The notes: generated by a model not told the origin, from the letters alone. DNA of 64,000 nucleotides from Rhynchopus sp. YZ270_cl-10 (GCA_964035575.1 OZ037839.1:1550001-1614000), one strand, 5' to 3'. Positions 7,150-64,000 are shown, counted from the stretch's first letter. Made by a program: numbers and translations.

Positions 7150-8211
7150 ATGGAACTGTGTGTGCAGAGATATGATGATGAAACCAAATTCGTGATTGAG
7201 GTGGGTGAGAAGGACACAACGGAGACGATGCGGCAGAAGGTGGCGTCTGCAACAGGGTTGTGCGAAGACAGCTTCCGCATGGGCTTCGGAGGGAAGGAGG
7301 AAGGAGAGGACATCACAGAACTGAGTGCTGGAGACACAGTCGTGTTGACGAAAACTACTAAGTACGCATCTCTTGAAGCACTTCGTGCCTTGGGTGAGAC
7401 AGACATTTCCGAAGCGAGGTTGGCGACTGTGAGGGATCCTGAGGTGGCTTCTCTGCTTCTTCAGGCGGAGGTTGCGACTGTTATCCCGCACTATTTCTTG
7501 ATCGAAGCATCGTTTACGAGACTTGATCTCTCTGCTGTGTCTGGTGTGACGCAAATTGAGCAAGGCTTCCTCTGGAAGTGTGCGTCGGTGGAAACCGTTG
7601 ACTTGTCGGGATTGTGCAACGTTACGCACATTGAGGATGACTTTCTCTCTTACTGTACATCGTTGACAAGCCTTGACGTGTCAGGGTTCACTGGTGTGAC
7701 GGTGATAGGGGAGTCGTTCCTCCAAGGAAGTGGCGTCACAAATCTTGACTTATCCGCGATGACGAGTGTGACGAAGGTTGGTGACTACTTCCTGTACCAC
7801 TGCGAGTCGTTGACAAGTCTTGACATCTCAGGATGGCACAGAGTCACGCACATTCAGGCCGACTTCCTCTGGAACTGCACCTCGTTGGCAACCATTGATT
7901 TATCAGCTTTTTGCAGTGTCACGAAGATCGACACCGGCTTTCTCCGCTACTGCGAGTCGTTGACCACCATCAGCTTTTCAGGGATGACGAATGTGACGGA
8001 AATTGGGAGCGACTTTTGTTCGGCCTGCTCCGCGTTGACAACAGCAGACTTATCAGGAATGAGAAATATTAGTCGGATTGCTAGTGGTTTCCTGAAAGAT
8101 TGCACATCCTTGACCACGCTGGACATGTCAGGTTTTGGCAGGGACACAGAGATCGGGGACGACTTCCTGCTCAACTGCAACGCACTCACAAACAGTCGTC
8201 TTGCCAGGTAA
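7150..8211 (+). pseudogene. UBL + BspA-type LRR protein, copy 1 (~10 LRRs; +1 frameshift near 8190 and disrupted tail)
   Basis: ATG 7150 MELCVQ... begins a ubiquitin-fold-like N-terminus, followed by ~25-aa LRRs. An extra A (ctcacaAacagtc versus ctcacaacagtc in paralogs) moves the C-terminal TVVLPGNID segment into another frame (ORF 8135-8467). The tail homology resumes at 8720. Confidence 0.75.
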
Positions 8212-9106: not shown

Positions 9107-10732
9107 ATGGAACTGTGTGTGCAGGGATACGATGATGAAACCAAATTCATGATTGAGGTGGGTGAGAACGACACAACGGAGACGATGCGGCAGAAGGTGG
9201 CGTCTGCAACAGGGTTGTGCGAAGACAGCTTCCGCATGGGCTTCGGAGGGAAGGAGGAAGGAGAGGACATCACAGAACTGAGTGCTGGAGACACAGTCGT
9301 GTTGACGAAAACTACTAAGTACACATCTGTTGAGGAACTTCGTGCCTTGGGTGAGACAGACATTTCCGAAGCGAGGTTGGCGACTGTGAGGGATCCTGAG
9401 GTGGCTTCTCTGCTTCTTCAGGCGGAGGTTGCAACTGTTATTCCTGCCGGGTTCTTGAGCGAAGCATCGTTTACGAGACTTGATCTCTCTGCTGTGTCTG
9501 GTGTGACGCGAATTGAGTGCAGCTTCCTCTGCGGGTGTGCGTCGGTGGAAACAGTTGACTTGTCGGGATTGTGCAACGTTACGCACATTGGGAATCACTT
9601 TCTCTCTCGCTCCACATCGTTGACAAGCCTTGACGTGTCAGGGTTCACTGGTGTGACGGTGATAGGGAACGCGTTCCTCAAAGGAAGTGGCATCAGAGAG
9701 CTTGACTTATCCGCGATGACGAGCATGACGACGGTTGGTAAGAACTTCCTACACCGCTGCGAGTCGTTGGAAAGTCTTGACATCTCAGGATGGCGCAGAG
9801 TCACGCACATTGAGCACAACTTCCTGTCGAACTGCACCTCGTTGGCAACCATTGATTTATCAGCTTTTAGCAGTGTCACGAAGATCGACTCCGAGTTTCT
9901 CCGCAACTGCTCGTCGTTGACCACCATCAGCTTTTCAGGGATGACGAATGTGACGGAAATTGGGAACAGCTTTTGTTCGTCCTGCACCTCGTTGGAAACG
10001 ATTGACATGACAGCACTGCACAGGGTTGTGAAGGTAGGTCGCAACTTTCTTGAGAGGTGCACCTCGCTGGGAAGTATCGACCTTTCAGCTTTTGGCAGTG
10101 CGACAGACATTGGGTACGGCTTTCTTTTTCAGTGCTCATCATTGAAAACAGTTGATTTATCAGTGTTGCGCAGCATCACACACATTGAGAATAGCTGGAT
10201 GGAAGGGTGCTCCGCGTTGACAACAGCAGACTTATCAGGACTGAACAATGTTACGCACATTAGTGCACAGTTCCTGGATGAGTGCACATCCTTGACTACG
10301 CTGGACATGTCAGGTTTTGGCAGTGACACACTGATCCAACGTTACTTCCTGGACAACTGCAACGCACTCAGTGACACAAGGATCCAGCACAACTTCCTGG
10401 ACAACTGCAACGCACTCACAACAGTCGTCTTGCCAGGCAACATCGACATTGACGAGATGTCTCTCCCGAATGAAGCCCAAAAGAACCATGGCGCTGGCCT
10501 CACGAAGACCTTCCATGCATGTGTGCGTGAGATTTACGCAAGGTTTACGGAACAGTTCGGAGGTGTGCGGACAGAAGATCTGGTACGAACAGACGTGTCT
10601 GGAGATGCAAGACAATGTATTGCATTGAAAGCAGGACAAGAAGGAGAAGGTTTGATGCAAGCACAAGAGGACGAGGACAAGCAGGAACTGGACAAACAGG
10701 AGCATGACAAGCAAGGGTATTTGGAGGGTTAG
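9107..10732 (+). CDS. UBL + BspA-type (LRR_5-like) leucine-rich repeat protein, copy 2 (541 aa, ~13 LRRs, acidic tail)
   Basis: Intact ORF with consensus xIxxxFLxxCxSLxxxDLS. An upstream pyrimidine tract and ACAACAG acceptor are present. No signal peptide or TM segment is visible. Confidence 0.88.
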   Translation: MELCVQGYDDETKFMIEVGENDTTETMRQKVASATGLCEDSFRMGFGGKEEGEDITELSAGDTVVLTKTTKYTSVEELRALGETDISEARLATVRDPEVASLLLQAEVATVIPAGFLSEASFTRLDLSAVSGVTRIECSFLCGCASVETVDLSGLCNVTHIGNHFLSRSTSLTSLDVSGFTGVTVIGNAFLKGSGIRELDLSAMTSMTTVGKNFLHRCESLESLDISGWRRVTHIEHNFLSNCTSLATIDLSAFSSVTKIDSEFLRNCSSLTTISFSGMTNVTEIGNSFCSSCTSLETIDMTALHRVVKVGRNFLERCTSLGSIDLSAFGSATDIGYGFLFQCSSLKTVDLSVLRSITHIENSWMEGCSALTTADLSGLNNVTHISAQFLDECTSLTTLDMSGFGSDTLIQRYFLDNCNALSDTRIQHNFLDNCNALTTVVLPGNIDIDEMSLPNEAQKNHGAGLTKTFHACVREIYARFTEQFGGVRTEDLVRTDVSGDARQCIALKAGQEGEGLMQAQEDEDKQELDKQEHDKQGYLEG

Positions 10733-15352: not shown

Positions 15353-15494
15353 AGTCATTTTCCCAATTTTTTTTCCCGCACGCCCGCACTTTTTTTGGAG
15401 ATGTGCCGGGACGCTTACAAAGAAAAAAAGTTACGGTACCCTAACATTTTTATTGATTCCTACACCGGTAAGTGGGGGGACAAAGCTATTTTGT

Positions 15495-15850
15495 TGCACA
15501 CGACCGGACGTATCTACGTGGTACGGTGTCAGAGGTTGGGAAAGGCTTCCTCAAGCTGCATCGCGTTGGAAACCATAGAATAGAATTGTCAGTGTTTTGG
15601 CGGTGTTGGTGATATGTGGGAGTGGTGTCCTTCGTGCACAGGGTTGACGTCCCTCTATTGCCATCACTTCGCAGTGCCAGACGTATTGATAGCTGGTTCC
15701 TTTCGCACTGCACGACTAGATTTGTCAGGATTGAGCAACGTGGTGAGCGTTGGGGCACAACTTCCTCAATGGCTGTGATGCACCACCTTCAAATGTCTTG
15801 AGCGGGTAATCTCGTGTCGAGCTGTGTCCCCAACACCACCGTGACGAAGA
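15495..15850 (+). pseudogene. Degenerate LRR gene relic (further copies at ~21880-22330 and ~24635-24780 + 25514-25680)
   Basis: Frameshifted LRR-like pieces such as RLDLSGLSNVVSVG and VLDLPGLEGVVPVGDWLLSHC are repeated in each intergenic unit. Confidence 0.55.
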
Positions 15851-16169: not shown

Positions 16170-17735
16170 ATGGAACTGTGTGTGCAGGGATATGATGATG
16201 GAACCAAATTCGTGATTGAGGTGGGTGAGAACGACACAACGGAGACGATGCGGCAGAAGGTGGCGTCTGCAACAGGGTTGTGCGAAGACAGCTTCCGCAT
16301 GGGCTTCGGAGGGAAGGAGGAAGGAGAGGACATCACAGAACTGAGTGCTGGAGACACAGTCGTGTTGACGAAAAATACTAAGTACGCATCTGTCAAGGAA
16401 CTTCGTGCCTTGGGTGAGACAGACATTTCCGAAGCGAGGTTGGCGACTGTGAAGGATCCTGAGGTGGCTTCTCTGCTTCTTCAGGCGGAGGTTGCGACTG
16501 TTATTCCATACGAGTTCTTGAGCACAGCATCGTTTACGAGACTTGATCTCTCTGCTGTGTCTGGTGTGACGCGAATTGAGGACCGCTTCCTCTTAGGCTG
16601 TGCGTCGGTGGAAACCGTTGACTTGTCGGGATTGTGCAACGTTACGCACATCGGGGACTACTGTCTCTATGGCTGCCCATCGTTGACAAGCCTTGACGTG
16701 TCAGGGTTCACTGGTGTGACGGTCATAGGGAGGTCGTTCCTCCATGAAAGTGGCGTCACAAATCTTGACTTATCCGAGATGACGAGTTTGACGGAGGTTG
16801 GTGCATACTTTCTTGCCTACTGCGATTCATTGGAAAGTCTTGACATCTCAGGATGGCGCAGAGTCACGCACATTCAGAACAACTTCCTCCAGAACTGCAC
16901 CTCGTTGGCAACGATTGATTTATCAGTTTTTTGCAGTGTCACGAAGATAGCCACCGCCTTTCTCGTCAACTGCTCGTCGTTGACCACCATCAGCTTTTCA
17001 GGGATGACGAATGTGACGGAAATTGGGAACAGCTTTTGTAGGATCTGCACCTCGTTGGAAACGATTGACTTGACAGTACTGCACAGAGTTGTGAAGGTGG
17101 GGGACGACTTTCTTTGGGGTTGCACCTCGCTGGGAAGTATCGACCTTTCAGCTTTCGGCAGTGTCGCAGTCATGGGTTCCGCGTTTCTTAGTCACTGTTC
17201 ATCATTGAAAACAGTTGATTTATCAGTGTTGCGCAGCATCAAGCGCATTGAGCGCGGCTGGATGCAAGGGTGTTCCGCGTTGACAACAGCAGACTTCTCA
17301 GAACTGAGCAATGTTAGACGGATTGATGCAGATTTCCTGCAAGATTGCACATCCTTGACGACGCTGGACATGTCAGGTTTTGGCAGGGACACAGTGATCC
17401 AGCGCAACTTCCTGCTGAACTGCAACGCACTCACAACAGTCGTCTTGCCAGGCAACATCGACATTGACGAGATGTTGTCTCTCCCGAATCGAGACCCAGC
17501 CCTCTCCTACAAGCTGACCTTCCGTGAACGTATGCGTGACATTTACGCAAGGTTTACAGAACAGTTCGAAGATGTGCGGATAGAAGCTTTTGAGGCAGTA
17601 CGAACAGACGTGTCTGGAAGTGCAAGACAATGTATTGCATTGAAAGCAGGACAAGAGAGAGAAGGGATTGATGCAAGCACAAGAGGACAAAAAAGAGGAA
17701 CAAAAAGAGGATTTGGAGAGTTGGGGGCAGCATAA
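16170..17735 (+). CDS. UBL + BspA-type LRR protein, copy 3 (521 aa, ~13 LRRs, basic tail)
   Basis: Intact ORF, paralogous to 9107-10732, with the same upstream acceptor region. Confidence 0.88.
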   Translation: MELCVQGYDDGTKFVIEVGENDTTETMRQKVASATGLCEDSFRMGFGGKEEGEDITELSAGDTVVLTKNTKYASVKELRALGETDISEARLATVKDPEVASLLLQAEVATVIPYEFLSTASFTRLDLSAVSGVTRIEDRFLLGCASVETVDLSGLCNVTHIGDYCLYGCPSLTSLDVSGFTGVTVIGRSFLHESGVTNLDLSEMTSLTEVGAYFLAYCDSLESLDISGWRRVTHIQNNFLQNCTSLATIDLSVFCSVTKIATAFLVNCSSLTTISFSGMTNVTEIGNSFCRICTSLETIDLTVLHRVVKVGDDFLWGCTSLGSIDLSAFGSVAVMGSAFLSHCSSLKTVDLSVLRSIKRIERGWMQGCSALTTADFSELSNVRRIDADFLQDCTSLTTLDMSGFGRDTVIQRNFLLNCNALTTVVLPGNIDIDEMLSLPNRDPALSYKLTFRERMRDIYARFTEQFEDVRIEAFEAVRTDVSGSARQCIALKAGQEREGIDASTRGQKRGTKRGFGELGAA

Positions 17736-18388: not shown

Positions 18389-21300
18389 ATGCCAGAAATG
18401 AGTGCCGCAGATGTGCAGTCTTTGTTGGAATGTCCCGATCGCAGTCGTCATATGTATGTTGCTTTGGTTTTCCTGGGTGTACTGCAGCAGTGACGTAACA
18501 GTGGTCCAAAAATGAGTTGGAGGGCATTTAGGTTTGGATTTTTGGTGAATTTTGGGTGCTCGGGGAGGGGGAGGGGGGGGTTCGATGGCATGGCAGCAGA
18601 CGAACTGCCCTCCAGTTGGGTTAGGGTGGTGTGGTGTTCTGCTTTGATTTTCTCTTACCTTAAGAATTCCACATACACCCCCTTCCCCTTCCCTTGCTTG
18701 GCAGTTGTTTCCTGGGCGATGTTGGCCACGGACGGAGCACCCTTGCCAAATGCCTTGCCGCAGAGTATTCCATTATAGAGCCACAAGAGAGCAGATGTCT
18801 TGACCGCCGCCATGACTCGCGAGACGTATGTTGCTCAAAAAGAAAAGAAAGAATACTCTAAGAAGTTGCGGACCCCCTCCTTCTGCTCAATGCATAAAGA
18901 GGTACACTGCCACCCTCTCATCGCAATGCTTGTTTTCTGCAAAAAAAATAACAACGGAATTCATCCTCGGGTGTCTACAGTAATACAACCAATACATGCT
19001 CTAAAAAGTTTCCCCCTTCTTCTGCTCGCATCAAAAAGTACACTGGCACCCTCTCAGCGCAAAGCTTTTTTTTCCCTGCAAAAACATAACAAAAGACAAC
19101 AGAGAGAACCAAATCAATATTTTTGAAAACCGCTTGTTCTCACCACCCACCCCACACCCCCCCTCAGCGCTACGACATACCGCCGTCACCCAGCGTCGGT
19201 CTGCATTACGATGATGGGGAGGGGTTCTTGGTTAATGTGATTGGGTTGTGTGAGGAGGACTTGGCACATGGTGTGCACACCACGCTGCGCATATGCGACG
19301 GCGCTGTTATTGTCGTGAGCGTGGGTGATGGGGACAGCACCTCAAACCACACCCCCTCATGCGAAGCTGTCTCCACAGACAGGCTCTCAGGCGACGCCCT
19401 CCCCACACAGACCGCGACACTCCTGCGCAGTGCCCTCGCACTCCGCATCCGCCCCTTGCTTATGCTCAACAAACTTGATGTCCCCCTCGCCTCTGGCACC
19501 CCTGAAGCCACCTACCAGCGCTGTCTTAGGATCATTGCCTCCACCAATGACGTCACCTCACTCTACAATGATGATACCCATACCGAACTCCATCCGTCCC
19601 TCGGTAACGTCGTTTTTGGGTCGGGTCTCGGGTCTTGGTCGTTTACGCTGAAAGATTTTGTGGGATTGTATTCGAAGAAATTGGAGATCAATGAAAGCAA
19701 ACTTCTGAACCGGATTTGGGGGGATCATTTCTATGATGCTAAGACGAAGAGGTGGGGGGAGGATTCGGGGAGCGGGGAGAGGGGGTTTTGTCAGTTCTGT
19801 TTGGAGCCGTTGTGGGGGTTGGCGGAGGCGGTGTTGAATGGGAAGGAAGAGAAGCTGGCACGGATGCTGCGCAGTCTGAAGATCACTGTGAACAGGACAC
19901 AACGTGACCTGACCCCGTCACGCCGTCTTCAAGCCATTCTCAAGAAACTGCTGCCTTCCAAACAGCTCCTCCACGCTGTTGTCACTGCCCTCCCCTCCCC
20001 CCTTGAGGCTCAGACCTACCGCACACCCCTGCTCTACGACGACAGCACCATTGACATCCACGACCCCGGATACCTCGGTGTCAGCCACTGCAGTCCCACC
20101 GCACCTCTCACCCTCTTCATCGCATCTGTTGTCCCATATGACGGACGACTCTTCGCATTTGGCAGAGTATTTTCCGGAACAGTCTCCCGCGGGGAAAAGC
20201 TTCGCGCCGGAAGAGACCATATCAGGCAAGGAAGCATGGTGGCGGTGTTTGGAAAATGGCATCATCCGGTGGGGAGGTTGGTTTGTGGGAACCTTTGTGC
20301 ATTGGATCTGAATGTGAAGGTGGGGGCAACGGTGTCGGATGGGGTGGTGTGTCCATTGAAGAGCGATGTAGGGGGTGTCAGTGTGGTGCAGGCTGAGGTT
20401 GCGTGTGAGGTTCGGGATCTTCCAAAATTGGTGAATGCGTTGCGCCACGCGGCGAGGCGTGAACGTACCGTGGACATTGCAGTATCGGAAACGGGTGCCC
20501 ACACGGTTGCCGGTTCTACAGAAGATGCGGTACTTCACTGCCTGGCGCGTCTTCGCAGTGCAGACTACCCTGAGGCAGGCTACAGAGCACCGTGCTTTAC
20601 AGTCTCCGATCTTTCCATCCGACTTCGCGAAACCATCACCGAAGCAAGCAACCGTCAATGCACCGCAATGTCACCCAACAGACACAACGTATTGTACTGC
20701 AAAGGCTTTCCTCTACCAGACGCTGTCTGCACACAGATTGAAGAGGGGACATACAAAACACCGGTATGGTGCTTTGGGCCGGCCGGAGGGCCGAATGTTG
20801 TGGTCGATGTTACGAAGGGTGTGCAATATATGCAGGAGCTGAAAGACTCAGTTGGGGCGGCGTGGACGTGGCTGACGGGGGAGGGTGTGTTGTGTGGGGA
20901 GGTGATGAGAGGGGTGCGGGTGGACATCGAGCATGCGACGTTGCACGCAGATGCTATCCACCGTGGTGCAGGACAGATCATTCCCACCATGCGGGATGCA
21001 GCGCGTGCCTGCATTCTCACGGCAGCGCCGCGGTTGATGGTGCCGATCTTCCGTCTGGATGTGACCACCACACTCACATCAATCGACTCCGTCTACACAA
21101 CTCTGCAACAACGAAGATGCACGGTCCTTGGAGAGAGCACCCGCGGTACTATGTTCAATGTATGAATCAAAGGGGTTTTTTCTTTTTACTTTTTGGACTG
21201 GCGTACACGTCACACCCTTTAACGGTATTGTGTAAAGTTGTCTTGTTGTTGTACGATTCACTCTTGTGGTCAAGGTGGCTTCAGTCTAGATATCTTTCTT

Positions 21301-21851
21301 TTCTACCTTTCTCCCTGCAGGTCCGTGCACACCTTCCTGCAACAGAGTCCATCGGGCTTTCTGCGGAGCTTCGCAACAAAACTGGGGGACAGGTATGGCA
21401 CGTTCCAGGAACGCGAATAAGATATGTTGCTTTTTGTTTCAAATATCAAGTCCTCGGCAATAAGAAGCAGACAACCACGTACGGTGCACCTCCCCTTTTG
21501 CAATTCAGAAGCAGTCACTGCATTCACTATTTCAGTAGGGGGGAAAAGAAGAGCGGTGAAGCTTTTCATCAGCACCATTTGTCTTTGTGTACAGCCACCA
21601 TTGTCTCCTGCACGCAGGAGGGTCTTTGCACTTTACACTTCTGTTTTTCCTCCTTTCCCCCTCCCCTCCCACAACCCGCTCCCTTGCTACAGGCGGTGCA
21701 GAGCAGTGTCTTTGATCATTGGGCGTTGTACCCGGGTGACCCGCTTGCTCTTGAGACACCTGCAGCGGACATGGTACGTCAGATACGCGTGCGCAATGGC
21801 CTTCCAGAGACACTGGAAAGCTTCCACGACGCACGAACATGTGTGCTGTAG
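18389..21851 (+). CDS. Divergent eukaryotic elongation factor 2-like protein, 5 exons: 18389-18453, 18705-18825, 19168-21159, 21321-21392, 21693-21851 (~802 aa)
   Basis: Four GTATG...CAG introns join the exons in frame. The N-terminus MPEMSAADVQSLLECPDRSRHICFLGDVGHGRST is colinear with eEF2. Also seen: NKLD, GNVVFGSGL, FAFGRVFSGTV, MSPNRHN, WCFGP, LHADAIHRGAGQIIPT, TGGQAVQSSVFDHW. Confidence 0.88.
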
Positions 21852-22614
21852 AGAGGGGGTGCACACAAGCCTTGCTGTTGGTCGTTGGGGTGGGGGTGGT
21901 TGCAGGCGTTCGGGTCCACTACTGCTCTGTATGGTGAGTTGCTGAGGCGAGCAGTGTCACTTCCATCGGGTAATTGTCTTTATGGCGTCGAGTGGACAGT
22001 GCTTGACTTGCCTGGGTTGGAAGGGGTGGTGCCTGTTGGAGATTGGTTGCTTTCGCACTGCAGCGTGTTGACACGACCGGACGTATCTACGTGGTACGGT
22101 GTCAGAGGTTGGGAAAGGCTTCCTCAAGCTGCATCGCGTTGGAAACCATAGAAGAGAATTGTCAGTGTTTTGGCGGTGTTGGTGATATGCGGGAGTGGTG
22201 TCCTTCGTGCACAGAGTTGACGTCCCTCTATTGCCATCACTTCGCAGTGCCAGACGTATTGATAGCTGGTTCCTTTCGCACTGCACGACTAGATTTGTCA
22301 GGATTGAGCAACGTGGTGAGCGTTGGTGCGTGTTACACTGACTTGTACTGCGGACAACGTGTCTTTGCTATCAAAAATACCCACAAGGAGGAGGGGATAC
22401 AACAGCCTCGTGGGTACACCGCTGACACACCCTAGAAGCGAGCAACTAACAATCTTGGTTTTCCTCTTCACGTTTTTCAGTCTTTTGAGCAACAAACAAA
22501 TAGAAACGAGTCTCTCGAGCATGTTATCCCCTCATTAGATTTTGTTGTATCTTGCCTCCCTCCTCCTCCTTCTCAACACTTACCCCACAACAGAGCAACA
22601 CTTCACTCGAAACA

Positions 22615-23817
22615 ATGGAACTGTGTGTGCAGGGATATGATGATGAAACCAAATTCGTGATTGAGGTGGGTGAGAAGGACACAACGGAGACGATGCGGCA
22701 GAAGGTGGCGTCAGCAACAGGGTTGTGCGAAGACAGCTTCCACATGGGCTTCGGAGGGAAGGAGGAAGGAGAGGACATCACAGAACTGAGTGCTGGAGAC
22801 ACAGTCGTGTTGACGAAAACTACTAAGGTCGCATCTGTTGAAGCACTTCGTGCCTTGGGTGAGACAGACATTTCCGAAGCGAGGTTGCGGACTGTGAAGG
22901 ATCCTAAGGTGGCTTCTCTGCTTCTTCAGGCGGAGGTTGCGACTGTTATTCCTAACTCGTTCTTGATCGAAACATCGTTTACAAGACTTGATCTCTCTGC
23001 TGTGTCTGTTGTGACGCGAATTGAGGACAACTTCCTCTACGGGTGTGCGTCGGTGGAAACCGTTGACTTGTCGGGATTGTGCAACGTTACGCACATTGCG
23101 CATCACTTTCTCTCTTACTGCCCATCGTTGAGAAGCCTTGACGTGTCAGGGTTCACTGGTGTGACGGTCATAGGGGAGTCGTTCCTCCAAGGAAGTGGCG
23201 TCACAAATCTTGACTTATCCGCGATGACGAGTGTGACGAAGGTTGGTACATACTTTCTTGCCTATTGCCACTCGTTGGAAAGGATTGACATCTCGGGATG
23301 GCACAGAATCACGCACATTGAGGACAGCTGGATGGTAGAGTGCTCCGTGTTGACAACAGCAGACTTATCAGGACTGAGGAATGTTAGTCGGATTGATTGG
23401 TCTTTCCTGCAAGATTGCACATCCTTGACGACGCTGGACATTTCAGGTTTTGGCAGCGTCACAGAGATCCCGTGCAACTTCCTGCTCAACTGCAACGCAC
23501 TCACAACAGTCATCTTGCCAGGCAACATCGACATTCACGAGATGTCTCTCCCGAATGAAGCCCAAAAGAACCATGGCGCTGGCCTCACGAAGACCTTCCA
23601 TGCATGTGTGCGTGACATTTACGCAAGGTTTACGGAACAGTTCGGAGGTGTGCGGACAGAAGATCTGGTACGAACAGACGTGTCTGGAGATGCAAGACAA
23701 TGTATTGCATTGAAAGCAGGACAAGAAGGAGAAGGTTTGTTGCAAGCACAAGAGGACGAGGACAAGCAGGAACTGGACAAAAAGGAGCATGGCAAGCGAG
23801 GGCATTTGGAGGGTTAG
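22615..23817 (+). CDS. UBL + BspA-type LRR protein, copy 4 (400 aa, ~8 LRRs, acidic-type tail)
   Basis: Intact ORF. It has an in-frame loss of 5 LRR units relative to copy 2, and its tail and 3' flank are nearly the same as copy 2. Confidence 0.88.
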   Translation: MELCVQGYDDETKFVIEVGEKDTTETMRQKVASATGLCEDSFHMGFGGKEEGEDITELSAGDTVVLTKTTKVASVEALRALGETDISEARLRTVKDPKVASLLLQAEVATVIPNSFLIETSFTRLDLSAVSVVTRIEDNFLYGCASVETVDLSGLCNVTHIAHHFLSYCPSLRSLDVSGFTGVTVIGESFLQGSGVTNLDLSAMTSVTKVGTYFLAYCHSLERIDISGWHRITHIEDSWMVECSVLTTADLSGLRNVSRIDWSFLQDCTSLTTLDISGFGSVTEIPCNFLLNCNALTTVILPGNIDIHEMSLPNEAQKNHGAGLTKTFHACVRDIYARFTEQFGGVRTEDLVRTDVSGDARQCIALKAGQEGEGLLQAQEDEDKQELDKKEHGKRGHLEG

Positions 23818-24780
23818 GGTACGGGACAGGCTGCAGCGATGTTGTGTCGAGCACAGTGTGGAACGGCGAGCAGAGGATGTCAGTGGTTGAAGCCCGTCCG
23901 AAACGCAGTGCGACCCACAGGAGGATTCTCGCAAGTGGCGGAGACACGCAGAGTGACGCCGCCAGCTGCGCACTGCTCCCTCGAAGCTGCACGACACACA
24001 CCCTCACAGGCCACTCCTCCCGCAAGCACTGCAGACAACAGAGCTGGAATCGCTGCTGCACAGCTTACTGGCAGCCCTACAATATCATGACATGTACGAC
24101 AGTTTGTGTGGAGAGAGGCTTAGGTTGATCTCATAAACACATTTCAAGTGCAATACGCATTTTCGGATGTCACGAGTCTTACTGTTTCCCCTTCCCCCCT
24201 TTTGTGTCTCAGCACCTTACTTTTTCAAGACACGGGTTTTCGAGCGTTTTCCGAGGTTTTCGGGTTTTTGGGCTATTTTCGGGGTTTCAAAAATAGAGAG
24301 AAAAGATGGATACTATCAAGAAAGAGCAGGACGACAGCAAAATAGAGAACGGGGGGGAGTTTCATTTTGTTTCATCCTTTCAAGGTGACCAAGCACGAGA
24401 GGCTTAGGTTCATGTTATGAACTTTTCATTCCTTTCTGTGAAAGAGAAAACTGACGCAGGAGCCTTTTATCGAATAAGCTTTTTCACACAACGTTTTTTG
24501 ATGTTCTTCTCCTTTGTTCACTCCCGTGTCTGTGTGCTGCTGTTGCTTCATATTTGTATTCTATACCGAAAAAAAGAAGGTAACATTTTTATTGATTCCT
24601 ACACCCGTAAGTGGGGGGACAAAGCTATTTTGTTGCACACAACCGTACGTATCTACATGGTACGGTGTCAGAGGTTGGGAAAGGCTTCCTGAAGCTGCAT
24701 CGCATTGGAAACAGAATAGAATTGTCAGTGTTTTGGCGGTGTTGGTGATATGCGGGAGAAGGTTCTTTCGTGCACAGGGT

Positions 24781-25989: not shown

Positions 25990-28180
25990 ATGGAACTGTG
26001 TGTGCAGGGATATGATGATGGAACCAAATTCGTGATTGAGGTGGGTGAGAACGACACAACGGAGACGATGCGGCAGAAGGTGGCGTCTGCAACAGGGTTG
26101 TGCGAAGACAGCTTCCGCATGGGCTTCGGAGGGAAGGAGGAAGGAGAAGACATCACAGAACTGAGTGCTGGAGACACAGTCGTGTTGACGAAAACTACTA
26201 AGTACGCATCCGTTGAGGCACTTCGTGCCTTGGGTGAGACAGACATTTCCGAAGCGAGGTTGGCAACTCCCGACGGCGGACCGCCCCCCATAGCACATTT
26301 TTGCGGTGCACGGGCGTACGGGATTAGTATCTTTTTTCGAGAGAACCCAAGAGCGGCCAGGTCCTGGACAAGTACGTTGTGCTTTTAGACCTACAAACTG
26401 TCTGGGGTGGTGGGACCTCGGGGCGAAGGGTGCTTCCCGGGACCCCAATATCCTACCACAAGGAGCTCGAGTCGTGCATGGAATGCAGGGTACTCTGAGC
26501 CGATTACTTCCACAAAACTCCCAGATCCCAAGACCTCCACGGGGGGCAGGCCTCCACGGAAACCCGCGACCGCCGACACCTTAGCTCCGTACTGCCTCTG
26601 TCTGTAACCTGCCGGTCCCCCACCTACCTACGCTTTTTGTGGTGTCTTTTTACGACGGTGGACCAAGGGGCTTTGCAGTGCAGTCAACGCCGACGGAGCG
26701 AGACTCGATTGTGACCGGGTGAAAAGGGAACCTTAGCCAGCGCTAACCAGCGGCAGTTTTGACTCAGGGAGGAGTTTCTCACCGCAGACTGGCGACACAC
26801 CCCCACTTTTTCGGGGTGGCTGCATTCCTCTTCGGAACGGGGTGTTCCATCCTATTTTTAAAAACGTTTATCGAAGCGAGGTTGGCGACTGTGGAGGATC
26901 CTGAGGTGGCTTCTCTGCTTCTTCAGGCGGAGGTTGCGACTGTTATTCCGACCTCGTTCTTGATCGAAGCATCGTTTACGAGACTTGATCTCTCTGCTGT
27001 GTCTGTTGTGACGCGAATTGAGTACCGCTTCCTCTACGGGTGTGCGTCGGTGGAAACAGTTGACTTGTCGGGATTGTGCAACGTTACGCACATCGGGGAC
27101 AAGTGTCTCGATGGCTGCACATCGTTGAGAAGCCTTGACGTGTCAGGGTTCACTGGTGTGACGGTCATAGGGGAGTCGTTCCTCCGAGGAAGTGGCGTCA
27201 CAAATCTTGACTTATCCGCGATGACGAGTGTGACGAAGGTTGGTACATACTTTCTTTTCAACTGCCAGTCGTTGGAAAGGATTGACATCTCAGGATGGCG
27301 CAGAGTCACGCACATTGAGAACGGCTTCCTCACGAACTGCACCTCGTTGGCAACCATTGATTTATCAGCTTTTTGCAGTGTCACGAAGATCGGCATTGAC
27401 GTTCTCTTCAACTGCAAGTCGTTGACCACCATCAGCTTTTCAGGGATGACGAATGTGACGTACGTTGGGCACAGTTTATGTAGGGACTGCACCTCGTTGG
27501 AAACGATTGACTTGTCAGCACTGCACAGAGTTGTGAAGGTAGATTTCGGCTTTCTTTGGAGGTGCACCTCGCTGAGAAGTATCGACCTTTCAGCTTTCGG
27601 CAGTGCCACACACGTTGGGCACAGCTTTCTTAGTCACTGTTCATCATTGAAAGCAGTTGATTTATCAGTGTTGCGCAGCATCAAGCGCATTGAGCCAAGC
27701 TGGATGTACGGGTGCTCCGCGTTGACAACAGCAGACTTATCAGGACTGAGCAATGTTACGCAGATAAATGCAGATTTCCTGCGAGAGTGCACATCCTTGA
27801 CGACGCTGGACATGTCAGGTTTTGGCAGGGACACAGAGATCGAGGACGACTTCCTGCACAACTGCAACGCACTCACAACAGTCGTCTTGCCAGGCAACAT
27901 CGACATTGACGAGATGTTGTCTCTCCCGAATGGAGACCCTAGAATGAGCACCTACAAGGAGGCCTTCTATGTACGTGTGCGTGAGATTTACGAAAGGTTT
28001 ACGGAACAGTTCGAAGATGTGCGGATAGAAGCTTTTGAGGCAGTACGAACAGACGTGTCTGGAAGTGCAAGACAATGTATTGCATTGAAAGCAGGACAAG
28101 AGAGAGAAGGGATTGATGCAAGCACAAGAGGACAAAAAAGAGGAACAAAAAGAGGATTTGGAGAGTTGGGGGCAGCATAA
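25990..28180 (+). CDS. UBL + BspA-type LRR protein, copy 5, interrupted by a 607-bp insertion (intact 522 aa if 26259-26880 is spliced)
   Basis: Both halves are open and paralogous to copy 3. Removing GT(26259)...AG(26880) restores ARLATV exactly. Confidence 0.72.
26265..26871 (+). mobile_element. Short non-coding insertion (SINE/introner-like) with 15-bp TSD CGAAGCGAGGTTGGC
   Basis: Direct repeat at 26250-26264 and 26872-26886. The site is empty in copies 1-3 (and slightly variant in copy 4). AT-rich 3' end and no evident TIRs. Confidence 0.88.
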
Positions 28181-46400: not shown

Positions 46401-49400
46401 GGTTCGCGACCTGCCGGGGGTGGATCTGTCGGTTTGGTACCTGGATGACGGGACGCTCATGGGATCGCCTGCGGCAGTTGCGAAAGCCTTTGAGGTACTA
46501 AAGTCGGAGAGCCTGAAGTTGGGGCTATCGGTGAATTCCTCCAAATGCGAACTCATCCCCCTCGGAGGTGAGAAGAACCACACTGATGCCGTCCTCCAGG
46601 ATGCAGGATTTGCCGTGGCGGACCTGAAGGTGCTCCGAGAGGGATTCAGCTTTCTGGGGGCCCCCATCGGCACTAACGAGTACTGCGACGAGTTCATGGA
46701 GAGCACGATGCTTGAATTCTCGAAGAAACTCCGCCTGCTGGGTAAACTGGGAGATGCTCAGGTGGCTCTGTCTCTCTTGCGCCACTGTGAAGGATTTTGC
46801 AAAACTGTCTTCTACATGCGGGCCCTTCGTCACCAAGGGGATCACAAGTGGCTGGACAAGTACGACAAGGAGGTGGACCGGGTGCTGGCACAGATTCTGA
46901 GTTCGCCAGGGTCGGACCCGGACGCATTGATGCCGGATGCGGCTCGAGTGCAAGCTGCCCTCCCCGTGCGTATAGGGGGCTTGGGGGTGCGCCGTGCATA
47001 CGACCACTGGACTGCTGCCGCTATGGGAGCTGCTAGTGGCACCTTCGATTTATGCAAGCACCTGGACAAACACTACCGTTGGGATGCTGGAGGGTGGAGC
47101 CACACTGCCACCCGGTACAATGAGCTTGTGGACGCCGATGCCCGCGTGAACCCAGAGGAACAGCCCCAGCAAATCCTCAAACAGCGTGATCTGTCTGCCC
47201 CGATCATCACACGTCAAGTGTCTGAGTTGCGCGACACAGGGGACATCCAGGACCGTGCTCGGCTGAATTCCCTTCAGCTGCCCTTGGCGGGGGCGTGGAT
47301 TACCGCATTACCCACCCCAGAAAACGTCATCAACCCGGAAGAGTTTCGAGCAGTGGTCCGTCTCAGACTGGGTCTTGCGGTACACAGGGACAAGGCACTA
47401 TGCGAACAATGTGGTCGGCCCATGGATGAGTTCGGGATACACGCCCTCAACTGCAGCCATGGGGGTTGCACGATTCGCAGGCATGACCGGCTACGCGATC
47501 TGGTGGGCATGCTGGGTTCGAAGGCGGGCCTCGCTCCGTCCCTGGAGCCTAAGCACATCGTCCTCGGAGGGACCAAACCGGCAGACATCTTCTTCTCCAT
47601 CGGAGTCGGTGATGGCAAGCCTCGAGCGGTGGACTGCGTGGTAGCGAATCCCCTCGCCAAGTCGCATGTCCAAGGGGCGGCCCGGGCGGTGGGACACGCC
47701 GCGGTCACACATCAGACGGCGAAACGGGGCAAGCACGGCGAAGCCTGCAGGAAAGCTCATATTTCCTTCACAGCCTTTGCAGCCGAGGTCCTTGGGGGGC
47801 TAGGTCCGGAGGCAGACACGCTGTGGCGCCATCTGAACAAGATGGCTGCGGAGCGAGCGGACGGGGATAAAGTTCTGGCATCGGTCAAGTGGAACGAACG
47901 TCTGGCCGTGTGTGTCCAGCGGGAGGTGGGCGCCACATTGCTGAAGAGAGGCGCCCTGTGCTTCAGCCTTGCGGTCACGCGCACAGCAGTGCCAGCGAAA
48001 GCAGTGTCCCTCGACAAAAGCTACTACGTCTCGCCAGACCCTCCCGATGACCGTTTCCCTTCGTACGTGGATGACCATCTGTACCGCTTGTCTGAGAACG
48101 ACTGTGAAGTTGAAGAGGAACCTGTCGCTCCCGTCGCCCCTGATCCCCTTTATGACGTCGACGAAGCCACGGCAGCGATGGAGGCATGGCTGAGCCGACA
48201 AGCGGGCAAGGAATCCACCCATCCGTCCACCCTTGAAGTACCCTCCACTCCCTGCGAAGACCCTGCAACAGCATTCAAGGCGCTGGAGACATGTGACCCC
48301 CCGCCGGCCCTGCCGCTACAGCTGTCCTCCCTCGGGTGCTCCGTTCCCGCGGACTTCCGCTACACAGTGGGCGACTGTTGCTTCGATGCCGTGGCGTACC
48401 AGTGCGGGAGGAGTGCGGGGTCCCTGAGACAGGCGGCGATTGCACAGGTGGTCCAAGACGAGGACTTAGCGGCTCGCGCTGAACCAAGTGTCGGAGTATG
48501 GGCGCGACAGATGAGCATCGCTGGGTGTGCGCGTCCTGACACTTGGGCTGACATGGTGACGGTTAGCGGCCTGGCCCGAGCTCTGCATTCCCTGGTGGTG
48601 GTGTTCATTGGTGGCCATCGACCGTCGGTCTTCACCCCCTCAGGCGAAGTGGGATACCGTCAGGTGCTCGCACTAGCCCACGATGGCCGCACCGCAGGTC
48701 ACTTCACGCCGGTCAATATCCCCGAGAAGCTGACGCAGTTCCTCCTCATGCATGAACCGACCCCGCGCCTGCCGCCTCTCACTTGTGTGTCACGCGAGGG
48801 GCTTCTGGACTGCCCCCTGGAAGACTCACGGGCGGATTTCGGGAAATGCGAGCTGTGCTCGGCTGCGGTCCTCGGTCGTGAACGTCATTGGGAGTGTCGG
48901 GAGTGCTCAGTTTGGGTGTGTGTGCCGTGTCGTTCCCTCCCCTCAACCTGCCCGCGGGCCCTGCCAGTGTCCAGCAAGCCATGCGCGGCGAGGATCATTG
49001 CGCGCGCGCACGAGATGATTGACCCCAAGAGCATTAACTTGGTGAAGGTACAGCGTGAAGCTCGCGTGACCAGCCAAGTGGAGACTGCAAAGGCGCGGAG
49101 GGCACAGACGCAACGCAACATGAGACAGGCATCATCAGACGTCCAGGGACAAGAGAGCGGCTACTCCACCACACATTCAGCCCTCCCTACTCCGGTCGCG
49201 TCCTCGGTGCCCCCTGTCGCACAAGCAGTTGCCCGTCCCGGCGCCTCTGCGCAGACACACCCTGGTTCGGACGGGGCAACACAACCTCAGACCGGTACGG
49301 AGAGTGGCTTCTCAAACACCCACTCAGCCCTCCCCGTATCTTCTTCCTCTGAGGCAGTTCCCTCTTCCGTCCACCCGAGAGAGCAGCCGCCCGCCGCATC

Positions 49401-49830
49401 GCAGGGCAGCGAGTTCTCTATGGACCTCATCGACGAATCAGAACTCGCAGTCCCCATGTCTGACGCCACTTCGGCCCCCAGCACGTACACGCAATCGGAG
49501 AGTGGCTCTCAACCCGCACCTACAGCCCTCCCGACCAACGTGCCGTTCTATGCCGGTATGGCGCCCTGCCCAGGATTCAACAACATGGGGTGTCCAGCGA
49601 CCGCCGAGGCGTGGAAGGACACGTTCTACCCGAACACGCTTCAGCACCAGTCGCTGGCAGCGGGAGGGGATTGGCAGTCGGTGGATGACGCCCTCACCTG
49701 CCTCTACCTGTGGAAAGAAGCGAAGAAGCCGTCGATGAGCTCCGACGAGGTGGAAGAGGCTTACACCCTCTACAACCGTCTGCGGGGCCTAAAGCGGAGC
49801 AGGAACTCGCGGCCGTCCCAGAGCACTTGA
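42019..49830 (+). CDS. Retrotransposon polyprotein: OTU-like, Zn fingers, reverse transcriptase, CCHC + restriction-like endonuclease, second OTU-like, Cys-rich Zn finger
   Basis: RT motifs RPIAVGE, KIDFSNAFN, GVQQGDPLGPLLF, WYLDDG (~45800-46680). RLE motifs CEQC..HALNC, RRHD, KPADI, VDC (~47400-47900). DNCLF...GNHFD (~44410-44800). GDCCFDA...GHF (~48360-48715). Start uncertain; 42019 is the first ATG after the SL. Confidence 0.88.
43324..43876. repeat. Degenerate (CAG/CAA)n trinucleotide tract inside the retrotransposon ORF
   Basis: Read as poly-Ser/Asn in the RT frame. Confidence 0.95.
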
Positions 49831-50135
49831 GTTTTTCTTTTTCATTCTTTACTTTTGTTTGGCTTTTAGCCTCCCCCCTCCCCCTTTGCCTATTGGTTTT
49901 ATTTTATTTTATTTTTAGAATTAGAGTGTACAGCTAGGTAGGACCAGACGTCGTTAACAGCTATGAACCAAAGAGGTTCTCAGTGTCGTCGGCCAAGCCC
50001 CTTCACCAAAAAAGACTACAACAAGAAAACAAACACACAGAAAAAAAAGTAAAAGAATGCCCTTCCTCAGTCCGGAAGTATCACCTCAACCGGTCACACC
50101 TGCCGTAAAATAGAGAGAGGTTACAGAATACAGAT

Positions 50136-50189
<54 letters not shown>

Positions 50190-50197
<8 letters not shown>

Positions 50198-53100
50198 AGA
50201 CAAAGTGATTTTTACCTGGATTTTTGCCTGTATTTTACTAGGGATTTTCCCTTAGTAAAATACAGGGGAATTATCTAACACCTCGTCCCGAGTTTTTGTC
50301 CGAGAATGCGATTACTAATTAGTTACTCCACTAATTAAATCGAGCAAAAATATGGTGAACTCAGCGGAGCCCGGTTTTAAAAGTGCCAAAAACGACCTTT
50401 TCGTTTTGACGCGTTGTGAGTTCCTCAAATGCAATTTTGAAGGGTAAAAAATTCGGGTTTTCTAAGCACATGCAGTGCTAAGTTAAAAAAAATCGCGAAA
50501 AAAAAATACAAAAATTTTGTGTTGGAAGCTCGGAACCCAGAAACGTCCAATGGTGAAGTTTTTTTCTGGTTTCGTTGCACCCTGTATTTTTACTTAAAAA
50601 TCAAGACAAAGTGATTTTTACCTGGATTTTTGCCTGTATTTTACTAGGGATTTTCCCTTAGTAAAATACAGGGGAATTATCTAACACCTCGTCCCGAGTT
50701 TTTGTCCGAGAATGCGATTACTAATTAGTTACTCCACTAATTAAATCGAGCAAAAATATGGTGAACTCAGCGGAGCCCGGTTTTAAAAGTGCCAAAAACG
50801 ACCTTTTCGTTTTGACGCGTTGTGAGTTCCTCAAATGCAATTTTGAAGGGTAAAAAATTCGGGTTTTCTAAGCACATGCAGTGCTAAGTTAAAAAAAATC
50901 GCGAAAAAAAAATACAAAAATTTTGTGTTGGAAGCTCGGAACCCAGAAACGTCCAATGGTGAAGTTTTTTTCTGGTTTCGTTGCACCCTGTATTTTTACT
51001 TAAAAATCAAGACAAAGTGATTTTTACCTGGATTTTTGCCTGTATTTTACTAGGGATTTTCCCTTAGTAAAATACAGGGGAATTATCTAACACCTCGTCC
51101 CGAGTTTTTGTCCGAGAATGCGATTACTAATTAGTTACTCCACTAATTAAATCGAGCAAAAATATGGTGAACTCAGCGGAGCCCGGTTTTAAAAGTGCCA
51201 AAAACGACCTTTTCGTTTTGACGCGTTGTGAGTTCCTCAAATGCAATTTTGAAGGGTAAAAAATTCGGGTTTTCTAAGCACATGCAGTGCTAAGTTAAAA
51301 AAAATCGCGAAAAAAAAATACAAAAATTTTGTGTTGGAAGCTCGGAACCCAGAAACGTCCAATGGTGAAGTTTTTTTCTGGTTTCGTTGCACCCTGTATT
51401 TTTACTTAAAAATCAAGACAAAGTGATTTTTACCTGGATTTTTGCCTGTATTTTACTAGGGATTTTCCCTTAGTAAAATACAGGGGAATTATCTAACACC
51501 TCGTCCCGAGTTTTTGTCCGAGAATGCGATTACTAATTAGTTACTCCACTAATTAAATCGAGCAAAAATATGGTGAACTCAGCGGAGCCCGGTTTTAAAA
51601 GTGCCAAAAACGACCTTTTCGTTTTGACGCGTTGTGAGTTCCTCAAATGCAATTTTGAAGGGTAAAAAATTCGGGTTTTCTAAGCACATGCAGTGCTAAG
51701 TTAAAAAAAATCGCGAAAAAAAAATACAAAAATTTTGTGTTGGAAGCTCGGAACCCAGAAACGTCCAATGGTGAAGTTTTTTTCTGGTTTCGTTGCACCC
51801 TGTATTTTTACTTAAAAATCAAGACAAAGTGATTTTTACCTGGATTTTTGCCTGTATTTTACTAGGGATTTTCCCTTAGTAAAATACAGGGGAATTATCT
51901 AACACCTCGTCCCGAGTTTTTGTCCGAGAATGCGATTACTAATTAGTTACTCCACTAATTAAATCGAGCAAAAATATGGTGAACTCAGCGGAGCCCGGTT
52001 TTAAAAGTGCCAAAAACGACCTTTTCGTTTTGACGCGTTGTGAGTTCCTCAAATGCAATTTTGAAGGGTAAAAAATTCGGGTTTTCTAAGCACATGCAGT
52101 GCTAAGTTAAAAAAAATCGCGAAAAAAAAATACAAAAATTTTGTGTTGGAAGCTCGGAACCCAGAAACGTCCAATGGTGAAGTTTTTTTCTGGTTTCGTT
52201 GCACCCTGTATTTTTACTTAAAAATCAAGACAAAGTGATTTTTACCTGGATTTTTGCCTGTATTTTACTAGGGATTTTCCCTTAGTAAAATACAGGGGAA
52301 TTATCTAACACCTCGTCCCGAGTTTTTGTCCGAGAATGCGATTACTAATTAGTTACTCCACTAATTAAATCGAGCAAAAATATGGTGAACTCAGCGGAGC
52401 CCGGTTTTAAAAGTGCCAAAAACGACCTTTTCGTTTTGACGCGTTGTGAGTTCCTCAAATGCAATTTTGAAGGGTAAAAAATTCGGGTTTTCTAAGCACA
52501 TGCAGTGCTAAGTTAAAAAAAATCGCGAAAAAAAAATACAAAAATTTTGTGTTGGAAGCTCGGAACCCAGAAACGTCCAATGGTGAAGTTTTTTTCTGGT
52601 TTCGTTGCACCCTGTATTTTTACTTAAAAATCAAGACAAAGTGATTTTTACCTGGATTTTTGCCTGTATTTTACTAGGGATTTTCCCTTAGTAAAATACA
52701 GGGGAATTATCTAACACCTCGTCCCGAGTTTTTGTCCGAGAATGCGATTACTAATTAGTTACTCCACTAATTAAATCGAGCAAAAATATGGTGAACTCAG
52801 CGGAGCCCGGTTTTAAAAGTGCCAAAAACGACCTTTTCGTTTTGACGCGTTGTGAGTTCCTCAAATGCAATTTTGAAGGGTAAAAAATTCGGGTTTTCTA
52901 AGCACATGCAGTGCTAAGTTAAAAAAAATCGCGAAAAAAAAATACAAAAATTTTGTGTTGGAAGCTCGGAACCCAGAAACGTCCAATGGTGAAGTTTTTT
53001 TCTGGTTTCGTTGCACCCTGTATTTTTACTTAAAAATCAAGACAAAGTGATTTTTACCTGGATTTTTGCCTGTATTTTACTAGGGATTTTCCCTTAGTAA

Positions 53101-62100: not shown

Positions 62101-64000
62101 TCCACTAATTAAATCGAGCAAAAATATGGTGAACTCAGCGGAGCCCGGTTTTAAAAGTGCCAAAAACGACCTTTTCGTTTTGACGCGTTGTGAGTTCCTC
62201 AAATGCAATTTTGAAGGGTAAAAAATTCGGGTTTTCTAAGCACATGCAGTGCTAAGTTAAAAAAAATCGCGAAAAAAAAATACAAAAATTTTGTGTTGGA
62301 AGCTCGGAACCCAGAAACGTCCAATGGTGAAGTTTTTTTCTGGTTTCGTTGCACCCTGTATTTTTACTTAAAAATCAAGACAAAGTGATTTTTACCTGGA
62401 TTTTTGCCTGTATTTTACTAGGGATTTTCCCTTAGTAAAATACAGGGGAATTATCTAACACCTCGTCCCGAGTTTTTGTCCGAGAATGCGATTACTAATT
62501 AGTTACTCCACTAATTAAATCGAGCAAAAATATGGTGAACTCAGCGGAGCCCGGTTTTAAAAGTGCCAAAAACGACCTTTTCGTTTTGACGCGTTGTGAG
62601 TTCCTCAAATGCAATTTTGAAGGGTAAAAAATTCGGGTTTTCTAAGCACATGCAGTGCTAAGTTAAAAAAAATCGCGAAAAAAAAATACAAAAATTTTGT
62701 GTTGGAAGCTCGGAACCCAGAAACGTCCAATGGTGAAGTTTTTTTCTGGTTTCGTTGCACCCTGTATTTTTACTTAAAAATCAAGACAAAGTGATTTTTA
62801 CCTGGATTTTTGCCTGTATTTTACTAGGGATTTTCCCTTAGTAAAATACAGGGGAATTATCTAACACCTCGTCCCGAGTTTTTGTCCGAGAATGCGATTA
62901 CTAATTAGTTACTCCACTAATTAAATCGAGCAAAAATATGGTGAACTCAGCGGAGCCCGGTTTTAAAAGTGCCAAAAACGACCTTTTCGTTTTGACGCGT
63001 TGTGAGTTCCTCAAATGCAATTTTGAAGGGTAAAAAATTCGGGTTTTCTAAGCACATGCAGTGCTAAGTTAAAAAAAATCGCGAAAAAAAAATACAAAAA
63101 TTTTGTGTTGGAAGCTCGGAACCCAGAAACGTCCAATGGTGAAGTTTTTTTCTGGTTTCGTTGCACCCTGTATTTTTACTTAAAAATCAAGACAAAGTGA
63201 TTTTTACCTGGATTTTTGCCTGTATTTTACTAGGGATTTTCCCTTAGTAAAATACAGGGGAATTATCTAACACCTCGTCCCGAGTTTTTGTCCGAGAATG
63301 CGATTACTAATTAGTTACTCCACTAATTAAATCGAGCAAAAATATGGTGAACTCAGCGGAGCCCGGTTTTAAAAGTGCCAAAAACGACCTTTTCGTTTTG
63401 ACGCGTTGTGAGTTCCTCAAATGCAATTTTGAAGGGTAAAAAATTCGGGTTTTCTAAGCACATGCAGTGCTAAGTTAAAAAAAATCGCGAAAAAAAAATA
63501 CAAAAATTTTGTGTTGGAAGCTCGGAACCCAGAAACGTCCAATGGTGAAGTTTTTTTCTGGTTTCGTTGCACCCTGTATTTTTACTTAAAAATCAAGACA
63601 AAGTGATTTTTACCTGGATTTTTGCCTGTATTTTACTAGGGATTTTCCCTTAGTAAAATACAGGGGAATTATCTAACACCTCGTCCCGAGTTTTTGTCCG
63701 AGAATGCGATTACTAATTAGTTACTCCACTAATTAAATCGAGCAAAAATATGGTGAACTCAGCGGAGCCCGGTTTTAAAAGTGCCAAAAACGACCTTTTC
63801 GTTTTGACGCGTTGTGAGTTCCTCAAATGCAATTTTGAAGGGTAAAAAATTCGGGTTTTCTAAGCACATGCAGTGCTAAGTTAAAAAAAATCGCGAAAAA
63901 AAAATACAAAAATTTTGTGTTGGAAGCTCGGAACCCAGAAACGTCCAATGGTGAAGTTTTTTTCTGGTTTCGTTGCACCCTGTATTTTTACTTAAAAATC
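50190..64000. repeat. 406-bp satellite, 34 further units running off the window
   Basis: 50196 to 64000 = 34 x 406 exactly. No unit differences were seen by eye. Each unit contains the hairpin CCTGTATTTTACTA-gggattttccct-TAGTAAAATACAGG. Confidence 0.98.

Follow-up and report, generated by a model that had tools for sequence, protein, structure and literature searches.

An eEF2 paralogue of Rhynchopus with degenerate GTPase motifs and a retained domain IV tip

What could an elongation factor still do once the motifs for GTP hydrolysis have gone and the tip of domain IV has stayed? This question is raised by a gene of the eEF2 family in a 64,000-nucleotide stretch of DNA from Rhynchopus sp. YZ270_cl-10 (hereafter the window; coordinates are counted from its first nucleotide). 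The initial annotation of the window had described a full-length spliced reading frame at this locus, and the gene model bears this out: five exons join to 2409 nt and give an eEF2-like frame of 802 aa with zero internal stops, and the four introns (251, 342, 161 and 300 nt) all have the form GTATG..CAG and compatible phases. GT-AG cis-introns are reported to be common in Diplonema papillatum (PMC10161547). The gene is built as follows.

18389..18453, plus strand: exon 1, with the start codon and the N-terminal helix of the G domain; 3' junction predicted
18705..18825, plus strand: exon 2, with the degenerate P-loop GDVGHGRST and the first half of switch I; junctions predicted
19168..21159, plus strand: exon 3, 664 codons, with degenerate G2/G3, intact G4/G5, G', domains II-IV and part of domain V
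21160..21320, plus strand: intron 3, spliced out of a contig of run X5
21321..21392, plus strand: exon 4, domain V
21393..21692, plus strand: intron 4, spliced out of the same X5 contig
21693..21851, plus strand: exon 5, C-terminus and stop codon

The product belongs to the EF2 family by descent, with a G domain, domains II-V and homology to eEF2 in both sequence and fold. Exon 3 alone matches the Pfam families EFG_IV, GTP_EFTU and EF-G_D2, and against PDB chains it scores 283-384 bits with eEF2, at most 196 with Snu114 and 124 with EFL1. The AlphaFold model of this exon, built from a 13-row alignment, has a pLDDT of 71 and a pTM of 0.56, with low confidence in a G-domain insertion and in parts of domain II, and its top Foldseek matches are eEF2. 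Alignment to canonical eEF2 gave the following positions for the motifs and for the largest changes.

18715-18741, plus strand: GDVGHGRST, aligned to canonical G1
19168-19182, plus strand: RYDIP, aligned to canonical G2
19243-19257, plus strand: GLCEE, aligned to canonical G3
19330..19395, plus strand: 22-aa G-domain insertion that follows the G3 strand and is modelled as a coil with low confidence
19468-19479, plus strand: NKLD, aligned to canonical G4
20671..20688, plus strand: domain IV loop 2, SPNRHN (canonical SPNKHN)
20746..20769, plus strand: site of a 23-aa deletion in domain IV; the residues corresponding to yeast K613 and R617 are lost with it, and a non-basic residue stands at the R631 position
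20941..20988, plus strand: diphthamide loop, with the target His (aa 660) at 20959-20961

The readings of G1, G2 and G3 in the initial annotation hold at these positions. In G1, the Lys and Asp of the canonical P-loop AHVDHGKS/T are gone, the Lys being replaced by Arg at aa 32; in G2, which reads RYDIPP, an Ile stands in the column of the switch-I Thr (RxITI); and in G3, whose register differs by a few columns between alignments, none of the alignments restores DxPGH. Switch II, which in yeast eEF2 contains the catalytic His, H108 (PMC4896748), retains 0/12 invariants. The near-canonical state claimed for G4 and domain IV was likewise confirmed. G4 (NKLD) and G5 (GSG) are present, and across the domain IV loops (HxDxxHRG, SPxKHN and the loop-3 Glu) the sole change is a Lys to Arg in loop 2. 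We counted retention over 262 columns invariant in 188 canonical eEF2, a set picked by motif among 407 proteins and rich in euglenozoan and fungal sequences. The paralogue retains 10/33 invariants in G1, switch I and switch II, 14/15 in the three tip loops and 118/214 elsewhere (Fisher p 0.009 for the catalytic set and 0.003 for the tip set). By part, retention is 11/14 in G', 23/29 in domain IV, 15/39 in domain III and 17/37 in domain II. By this count, the tip loops are the most strongly constrained part of the paralogue's surface. The diphthamide loop has RGAGQ in place of RGGGQ, a form present in 15/188 canonical eEF2, and the loop-2 Arg is present in only 1/188.

Because the catalytic His, the switch-II Asp and the switch-I Thr are absent, the paralogue would be unable to hydrolyse GTP, and we predict that both ribosome-stimulated GTPase activity and translocation are absent; G4 and G5 may still bind guanine nucleotide weakly. 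The loss of these residues, of the P-loop Lys and Asp and of DxPGH as a whole supports the earlier description of the gene as an eEF2-derived pseudo-GTPase. The second His of the loop is the diphthamide site in the definition of the tip loops that we followed (PMC6143161), and thus His660 is the corresponding residue here, which presumably carries diphthamide. The 22-aa insertion, the 23-aa deletion and the sister copies described below were not part of the initial annotation. Bacterial EF-G functions without the subdomain deleted here. In yeast eEF2, the K613/R617/R631 cluster sits over 18S helices 33 and 34 in the 40S head, and switch I contacts 18S helix 14 (PMC4896748).

A phylogeny against eEF2, EFL1 and Snu114, by which the origin of the gene was to be judged, placed it among glycomonad eEF2, away from Snu114 and EFL1. 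Under both LG+G and a C20 mixture, the latter in its quick version, the paralogue groups with diplonemid and kinetoplastid eEF2 at 99 SH-aLRT, on a very long branch of 1.4 changes per site (LG+G); in all five trees with these rows it is nested in glycomonad eEF2 or stands among eEF2-like rows. AU tests of constrained clades rejected a grouping with Snu114 (p 0.035) and with a fungal eEF2 (p 0.003), and did not reject one with EFL1 (p 0.066) or with kinetoplastids (p 0.19). In addition, the protein has an eEF2-like start without the N-terminal extension of Snu114, and its 802 aa fall short of the length of EFL1 (about 1050-1100 aa). The EFL1/Ria1 score of 124 bits compares with 383 for eEF2, and the best trees exclude that grouping, so that the AU test is alone in not rejecting it. 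On these trees and scores, the gene is a lineage-specific, glycomonad-level duplicate of eEF2. Its placement, the GT-AG cis-introns and a spliced-leader-like 39-mer elsewhere in the window together point to a diplonemid as the likely host. No orthologue was found by a word search with exon 3 (23 hits) or in a full HMMER scan of the 50% clusters, where the best non-self match has 42% identity, and a search of the ESM Atlas returned EF2-family clusters only. With the proteins P0049 and P0045 as queries, the 120 best matches in each case were eEF2, 41-53% identical to the query, and included no second paralogue of that kind.

Five runs with matches to the gene were found (X1-X5), none of them recorded as RNA. 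X1-X4 behave as DNA: their contigs run through introns 2 to 4, and no splice is among the joints listed. In X5, a run of unrecorded kind that was compared over 20300-21760, a 1312-nt contig skips 21160-21320 and 21393-21692, both GT..AG; in the same comparison, X1 and X3 have no splice joint across introns 3 and 4. The spliced contig lacks 15 nt at 20565, as the sister type does, and departs from the window copy at three further points; it thus demonstrates splicing for the gene family. The junctions of introns 3 and 4 are therefore seen in a contig of the sister type, while introns 1 and 2 stand as predictions. Another piece in X5, 163 nt long, matches the window copy exactly, at a depth of 8.8 versus 4.9 for the sister type; this points to transcription of the window copy as well. 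The window form of the 15 nt at 20565 is in none of the listed contigs of any run, and contigs drop variants; the X5 contig depth of ~10 is a poor gauge of expression.

Several observations bear on selection. Identity to the consensus follows conservation, being 142/239 at invariant columns and 8/71 at the most variable columns. When neutral decay to 45% identity was simulated, 60/60 runs had at least 13 stops, as against 0 in the actual gene, and neutral point-mutation simulations to 60% and 80% identity produced stops in 60/60 runs each. Neutral evolution, which the initial annotation had named as an outcome that would undo its reading, is contradicted by these results, by which the gene is maintained as a protein under purifying selection.

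Three related proteins of the collection, P0002, P0025 and P0026, are recorded on a contig of 1,487,168 bases. The sister proteins P0025 and P0026 show no difference where they overlap, and their identity to the window protein is 95.6%; the 64-kb window itself contains no second copy. Since the depth in X1 at 20372-20534 is 115 for the window type and 202 for the sister type, the genome likely carries three copies. The amino-acid substitutions between copies are concentrated in helix A of domain III, where aa 474-508 hold 13/22 of them.

20402..20504, plus strand: domain III helix A and the next strand, with 24 differences to the sister type, 17 non-synonymous and 7 synonymous

Helix A of domain III packs on uS12 (PMC4896748). 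Positive selection on this patch was considered and is unsupported, its pN/pS being 0.91 (binomial p 0.82 against neutrality); outside it, a partial list of ten other sites has 6 non-synonymous and 4 synonymous differences. The differences in the patch fit patchwork conversion or relaxed constraint.

On both sides the paralogue has neighbours of a different family.

16170..17735, plus strand: upstream neighbour, intronless ubiquitin-like and BspA-type LRR gene by domain match, of the same family as the downstream gene
22615..23817, plus strand: downstream neighbour, another BspA-type LRR gene from this family

The ubiquitin-like and BspA-LRR genes are intronless, lie on the paralogue's strand and have at least 6 starts in the window. 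Members were found at 7150-8211, 9107-10732, 16170-17735, 22615-23817, 25990-28180 and 39899-40297; their N-terminal 90 aa are 92-97% identical and their LRR parts 78-80%, the number of repeats differs, and the C-terminus comes in two alternative forms. In X1, LRR stretches have a summed contig depth ~30 to 200 times that of the eEF2 paralogue, a ratio that is not a copy number. The LRR family is likely very large, and its adjacency to the eEF2 paralogue is therefore weak evidence of a link; a functional link between the two has no direct support. At 26269-26871 and from 40178, two genes of the family are interrupted at a shared point about 279 nt past the start; in the first, some 600 nt of different sequence intervene before the gene picks up again at 26872. 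Directly downstream of the eEF2 paralogue, 21850-22430 is a degenerate LRR-like remnant with frame breaks, and the stretch behind this remnant has related pieces at 15492-15756 and 24631-24780.

Based on its sequence, we tentatively favour the view that the paralogue is a non-translocating ribosome binder, GTPase-dead and with its tip kept. This eEF2 duplicate has lost the motifs for GTP hydrolysis and the switches and has kept the domain IV tip; its product would dock in the factor site of the ribosome without translocating, and once docked would damp translation or occupy idle ribosomes. The binding would be looser than that of eEF2, or differently controlled, because the basic patch facing the 40S head is missing and the copies differ in the helix that faces uS12. 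Such a role would be regulatory and not housekeeping. The selective retention of the tip fits a ribosome regulator. Ribosome binding without turnover would be favoured since G', G4 and domains IV-V are kept and since EF-G lacking the His is not released: in EF-G, loss of the same His is reported to abolish hydrolysis, hydrolysis is required for release, and H91L was recovered in a dominant-lethal screen (PMC9636962). According to their entry titles, several solved structures have eEF2 on dormant ribosomes with SERBP1 or Stm1. The known partners of the tip loops are the decoding centre, the diphthamide enzymes and the diphthamide-specific toxins; that the protein works with other partners, such as the Dph enzymes, seems very unlikely to us. 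What counts against a ribosome binder is that the switch I that would contact helix 14 is remodelled, that the K613/R617/R631 cluster is lost, that domains III and II retain 15/39 and 17/37 invariants, with domain II poorly modelled, and that no orthologue above 50% identity was found to show a conserved function. Furthermore, the comparison with H91L holds only if GTP is bound tightly, and the altered P-loop may no longer allow this; part of the diphthamide loop may also be structural, since P0178, a Snu114-type protein and no translation factor, retains LHRGGGQ.

It is also possible, if somewhat unlikely, that the gene is under a relaxed and mostly structural constraint, in which an eEF2-like fold would serve a minor or moonlighting role and the tip, though unused, would survive in a slowly evolving domain IV. 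The long branch and the lack of a detected orthologue agree with this, as do the amino-acid changes between copies, which are not clearly depleted either in the patch or at the ten other listed sites, and the absence of the loop from 18/38 similar relatives. However, retention lies well above that of the remaining invariants in the tip and well below it in the catalytic set, and the frame is intact and spliced. Hardly credible is the idea that the gene is an ordinary Snu114 or EFL1 orthologue, or the only working eEF2 of the organism. The AU test of the EFL1 clade leaves it formal room, but the PDB scores of exon 3, the five trees, the rejection of the Snu114 clade and the missing Snu114 extension and EFL1 length all oppose it, and a factor without the catalytic His could not turn over, as described for EF-G (PMC9636962).

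The initial annotation had named a decoy or sensor as one of its two readings, beside a ribosome hibernation or regulatory factor, and for the decoy or sensor the analysis gave no direct support. A diphthamide-bearing tip held off the ribosome would soak up or report microbial or viral enzymes that attack eEF2, possibly together with LRR proteins. In its favour, the tip is retained and several parts that would contact the ribosome are missing, the gene exists in several copies that diverge in one patch, and it lies inside an array of ubiquitin-like and LRR genes whose LRR part is more variable than their N-terminus; moreover, diphthamide is described as the target of a toxin family (PMC7354439). 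On the other hand, the pN/pS of the patch does not depart from neutrality, the tip is invariant between copies, and 18/38 similar relatives with dead G motifs lack D-x-x-H-R. At the depth of ~10 seen in X5, a scarce decoy could hardly protect the abundant eEF2 from a catalytic toxin, the size of the LRR family means that adjacency may be chance, and no such attacker of diplonemids was identified. As to a decoy integrated in an LRR receptor, the paralogue is a separate gene in the gene model, with no fusion to LRR. We regard a decoy as unlikely. A broader proposal, decidedly unlikely in our judgement, is that eukaryotes repeatedly made GTPase-dead, tip-keeping pseudo-eEF2 for cell-autonomous defence, in which it would be induced as a brake on ribosomes or as bait, and that here it was amplified and shuffled within a large variable ubiquitin-like/LRR repertoire as one defence system.

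Compared with known systems, the paralogue is a variant among the non-catalytic paralogues of translational GTPases. Canonical eEF2 (yeast Eft1/2, PDB 1N0U; D. papillatum P0226; Bodo saltans P0236) is ~37-41% identical over its length and has the same domain order, fold, G4, G5 and three tip loops, whereas the paralogue has lost the G1 Lys/Asp, the G2 Thr and the G3 DxPGH, has the 22-aa insertion and the 23-aa deletion of the 40S-head basic patch, and sits on a very long branch. The eEF2 copies of Naegleria gruberi are likewise species-level protist duplicates and often highly divergent (Atkinson 2015, PMC4342817); they belong to another lineage, are likened here by description, and in that account come with no description of GTPase-motif loss with tip retention, or of a function. 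The Asgard aEF-2p is likewise a second EF-2 paralogue beside a canonical factor and is thought to be non-translocating (Narrowe 2018, PMC6143161). As described there it is a mirror image of the window paralogue, since it keeps G1-G5 and has lost the tip loops. Yeast Ski7 (PMC4509514) and archaeal aSelBL (PMC4342817, PMC6143161) are further translational-GTPase paralogues whose G domain is non-catalytic, but they derive from Hbs1/EF1 and SelB, respectively, and not from EF2. Ski7 is reported to bind GTP stably in a near-intact pocket (PMC4509514), whereas the window paralogue has changes in the P-loop and in both switches. Other eEF2 duplicates with new roles are Snu114 and EFL1/Ria1; they are older, pan-eukaryotic and keep G1 and G3, and Snu114 keeps part of the HRGGGQ loop, whereas the window gene arose later, by duplication at the glycomonad level, and has the H-x-D-x-x-H-R-G loop in full.

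The class to which the gene belongs is recurrent. The G1 Lys or the G3 His is missing in 38/103 full-length divergent relatives, the 103 being left by a coverage filter (46 dropped) from the best 149 of 358 non-self representatives at E 1e-30 or better, and 20 of these 38 keep D-x-x-H-R; the column calls are rough, and the survey is biased to tip retention because the query carries the tip. Mean retention in the 38 is 0.32 for the catalytic set, 0.68 for the tip and 0.55 for the rest, with the tip above the rest in 28/38. Of 20 divergent representatives that were looked up, nine have an organism name, namely Artemidia, Diplonema japonicum, Aphanomyces, Arcella, Mastigamoeba, Dictyostelium purpureum, Nonionella, Cladochytrium and Mycena, and altered G motifs with a kept loop occur among the oomycete, amoebae, foraminiferan, fungi and another diplonemid. 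The losses differ between relatives: the Artemidia protein retains DSPGH, and the D. japonicum paralogue (P0065) lacks the loop His.

Degenerate eEF2 paralogues likely arose independently, to judge from their sequences. An ancient euglenozoan clade of pseudo-eEF2, recovered at 98 SH-aLRT, was rejected as likely long-branch attraction, since constrained trees were 25-29 lnL higher. Derived residues are shared with the window gene at 10-19% by 11 mostly euglenozoan-type paralogues, which is the background level (8-21% for 8 unrelated paralogues). Of the diagnostic residues, the Artemidia paralogue has 23 in common with one type of diplonemid eEF2, versus 10, and two fungal paralogues fall with fungi in the tree. 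These results together argue for independent origins. P0272, a moderately diverged diplonemid-type eEF2 recorded on a contig of 806,888 bases, keeps its G motifs, has SxNRHN in loop 2 as the window paralogue does and an altered diphthamide loop, and may represent divergence of this kind at an early stage. Numerous divergent eEF2-like proteins, many of them from JGI/Logan contigs, have intact G motifs and altered tip loops.

In the literature searched, with subscription journals outside its coverage, we found no description of a GTPase-dead, tip-keeping eEF2 class, and the main text of the D. papillatum genome paper does not mention "elongation factor" or "leucine-rich". eEF2 is one of the most conserved proteins, and copies that keep the tip and drop catalysis split its job into its two halves. 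If they are ribosome binders, they would form a class of translation regulators not described so far and would offer natural tools for separating the contributions of GTP hydrolysis and diphthamide. Given the recurrence, the single gene in the window is one case among many; it adds splicing evidence, several copies and a deleted 40S-head contact.

Other features of the window lie at a distance from the gene. A 388-aa ORF at 38359-39525 has several hydrophobic stretches and no Pfam match. An AT-rich 406-bp satellite, with units 100% identical, occupies 40768-41907 (2.8 copies) and 50190-64000 (34 copies); Rfam over 40000-52000 gave two low-complexity matches only, and none for the part of the satellite in that range. 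An 8.3-kb retroelement at 41907-50194 sits in this satellite, with the same unit position on both flanks, and has a 2642-codon stop-to-stop frame with an RVT_1 domain. It begins at its 5' end with a spliced-leader-like 39-mer (41907-41945) and a 16-nt partial repeat and closes with 55 nt of poly(A); a trans-spliced RNA seems to have been the template from which it was copied. The entry "Euglenozoa 14" is one that we take to be Diplonema. The 39-mer resembles this entry by eye (PMC3795323).
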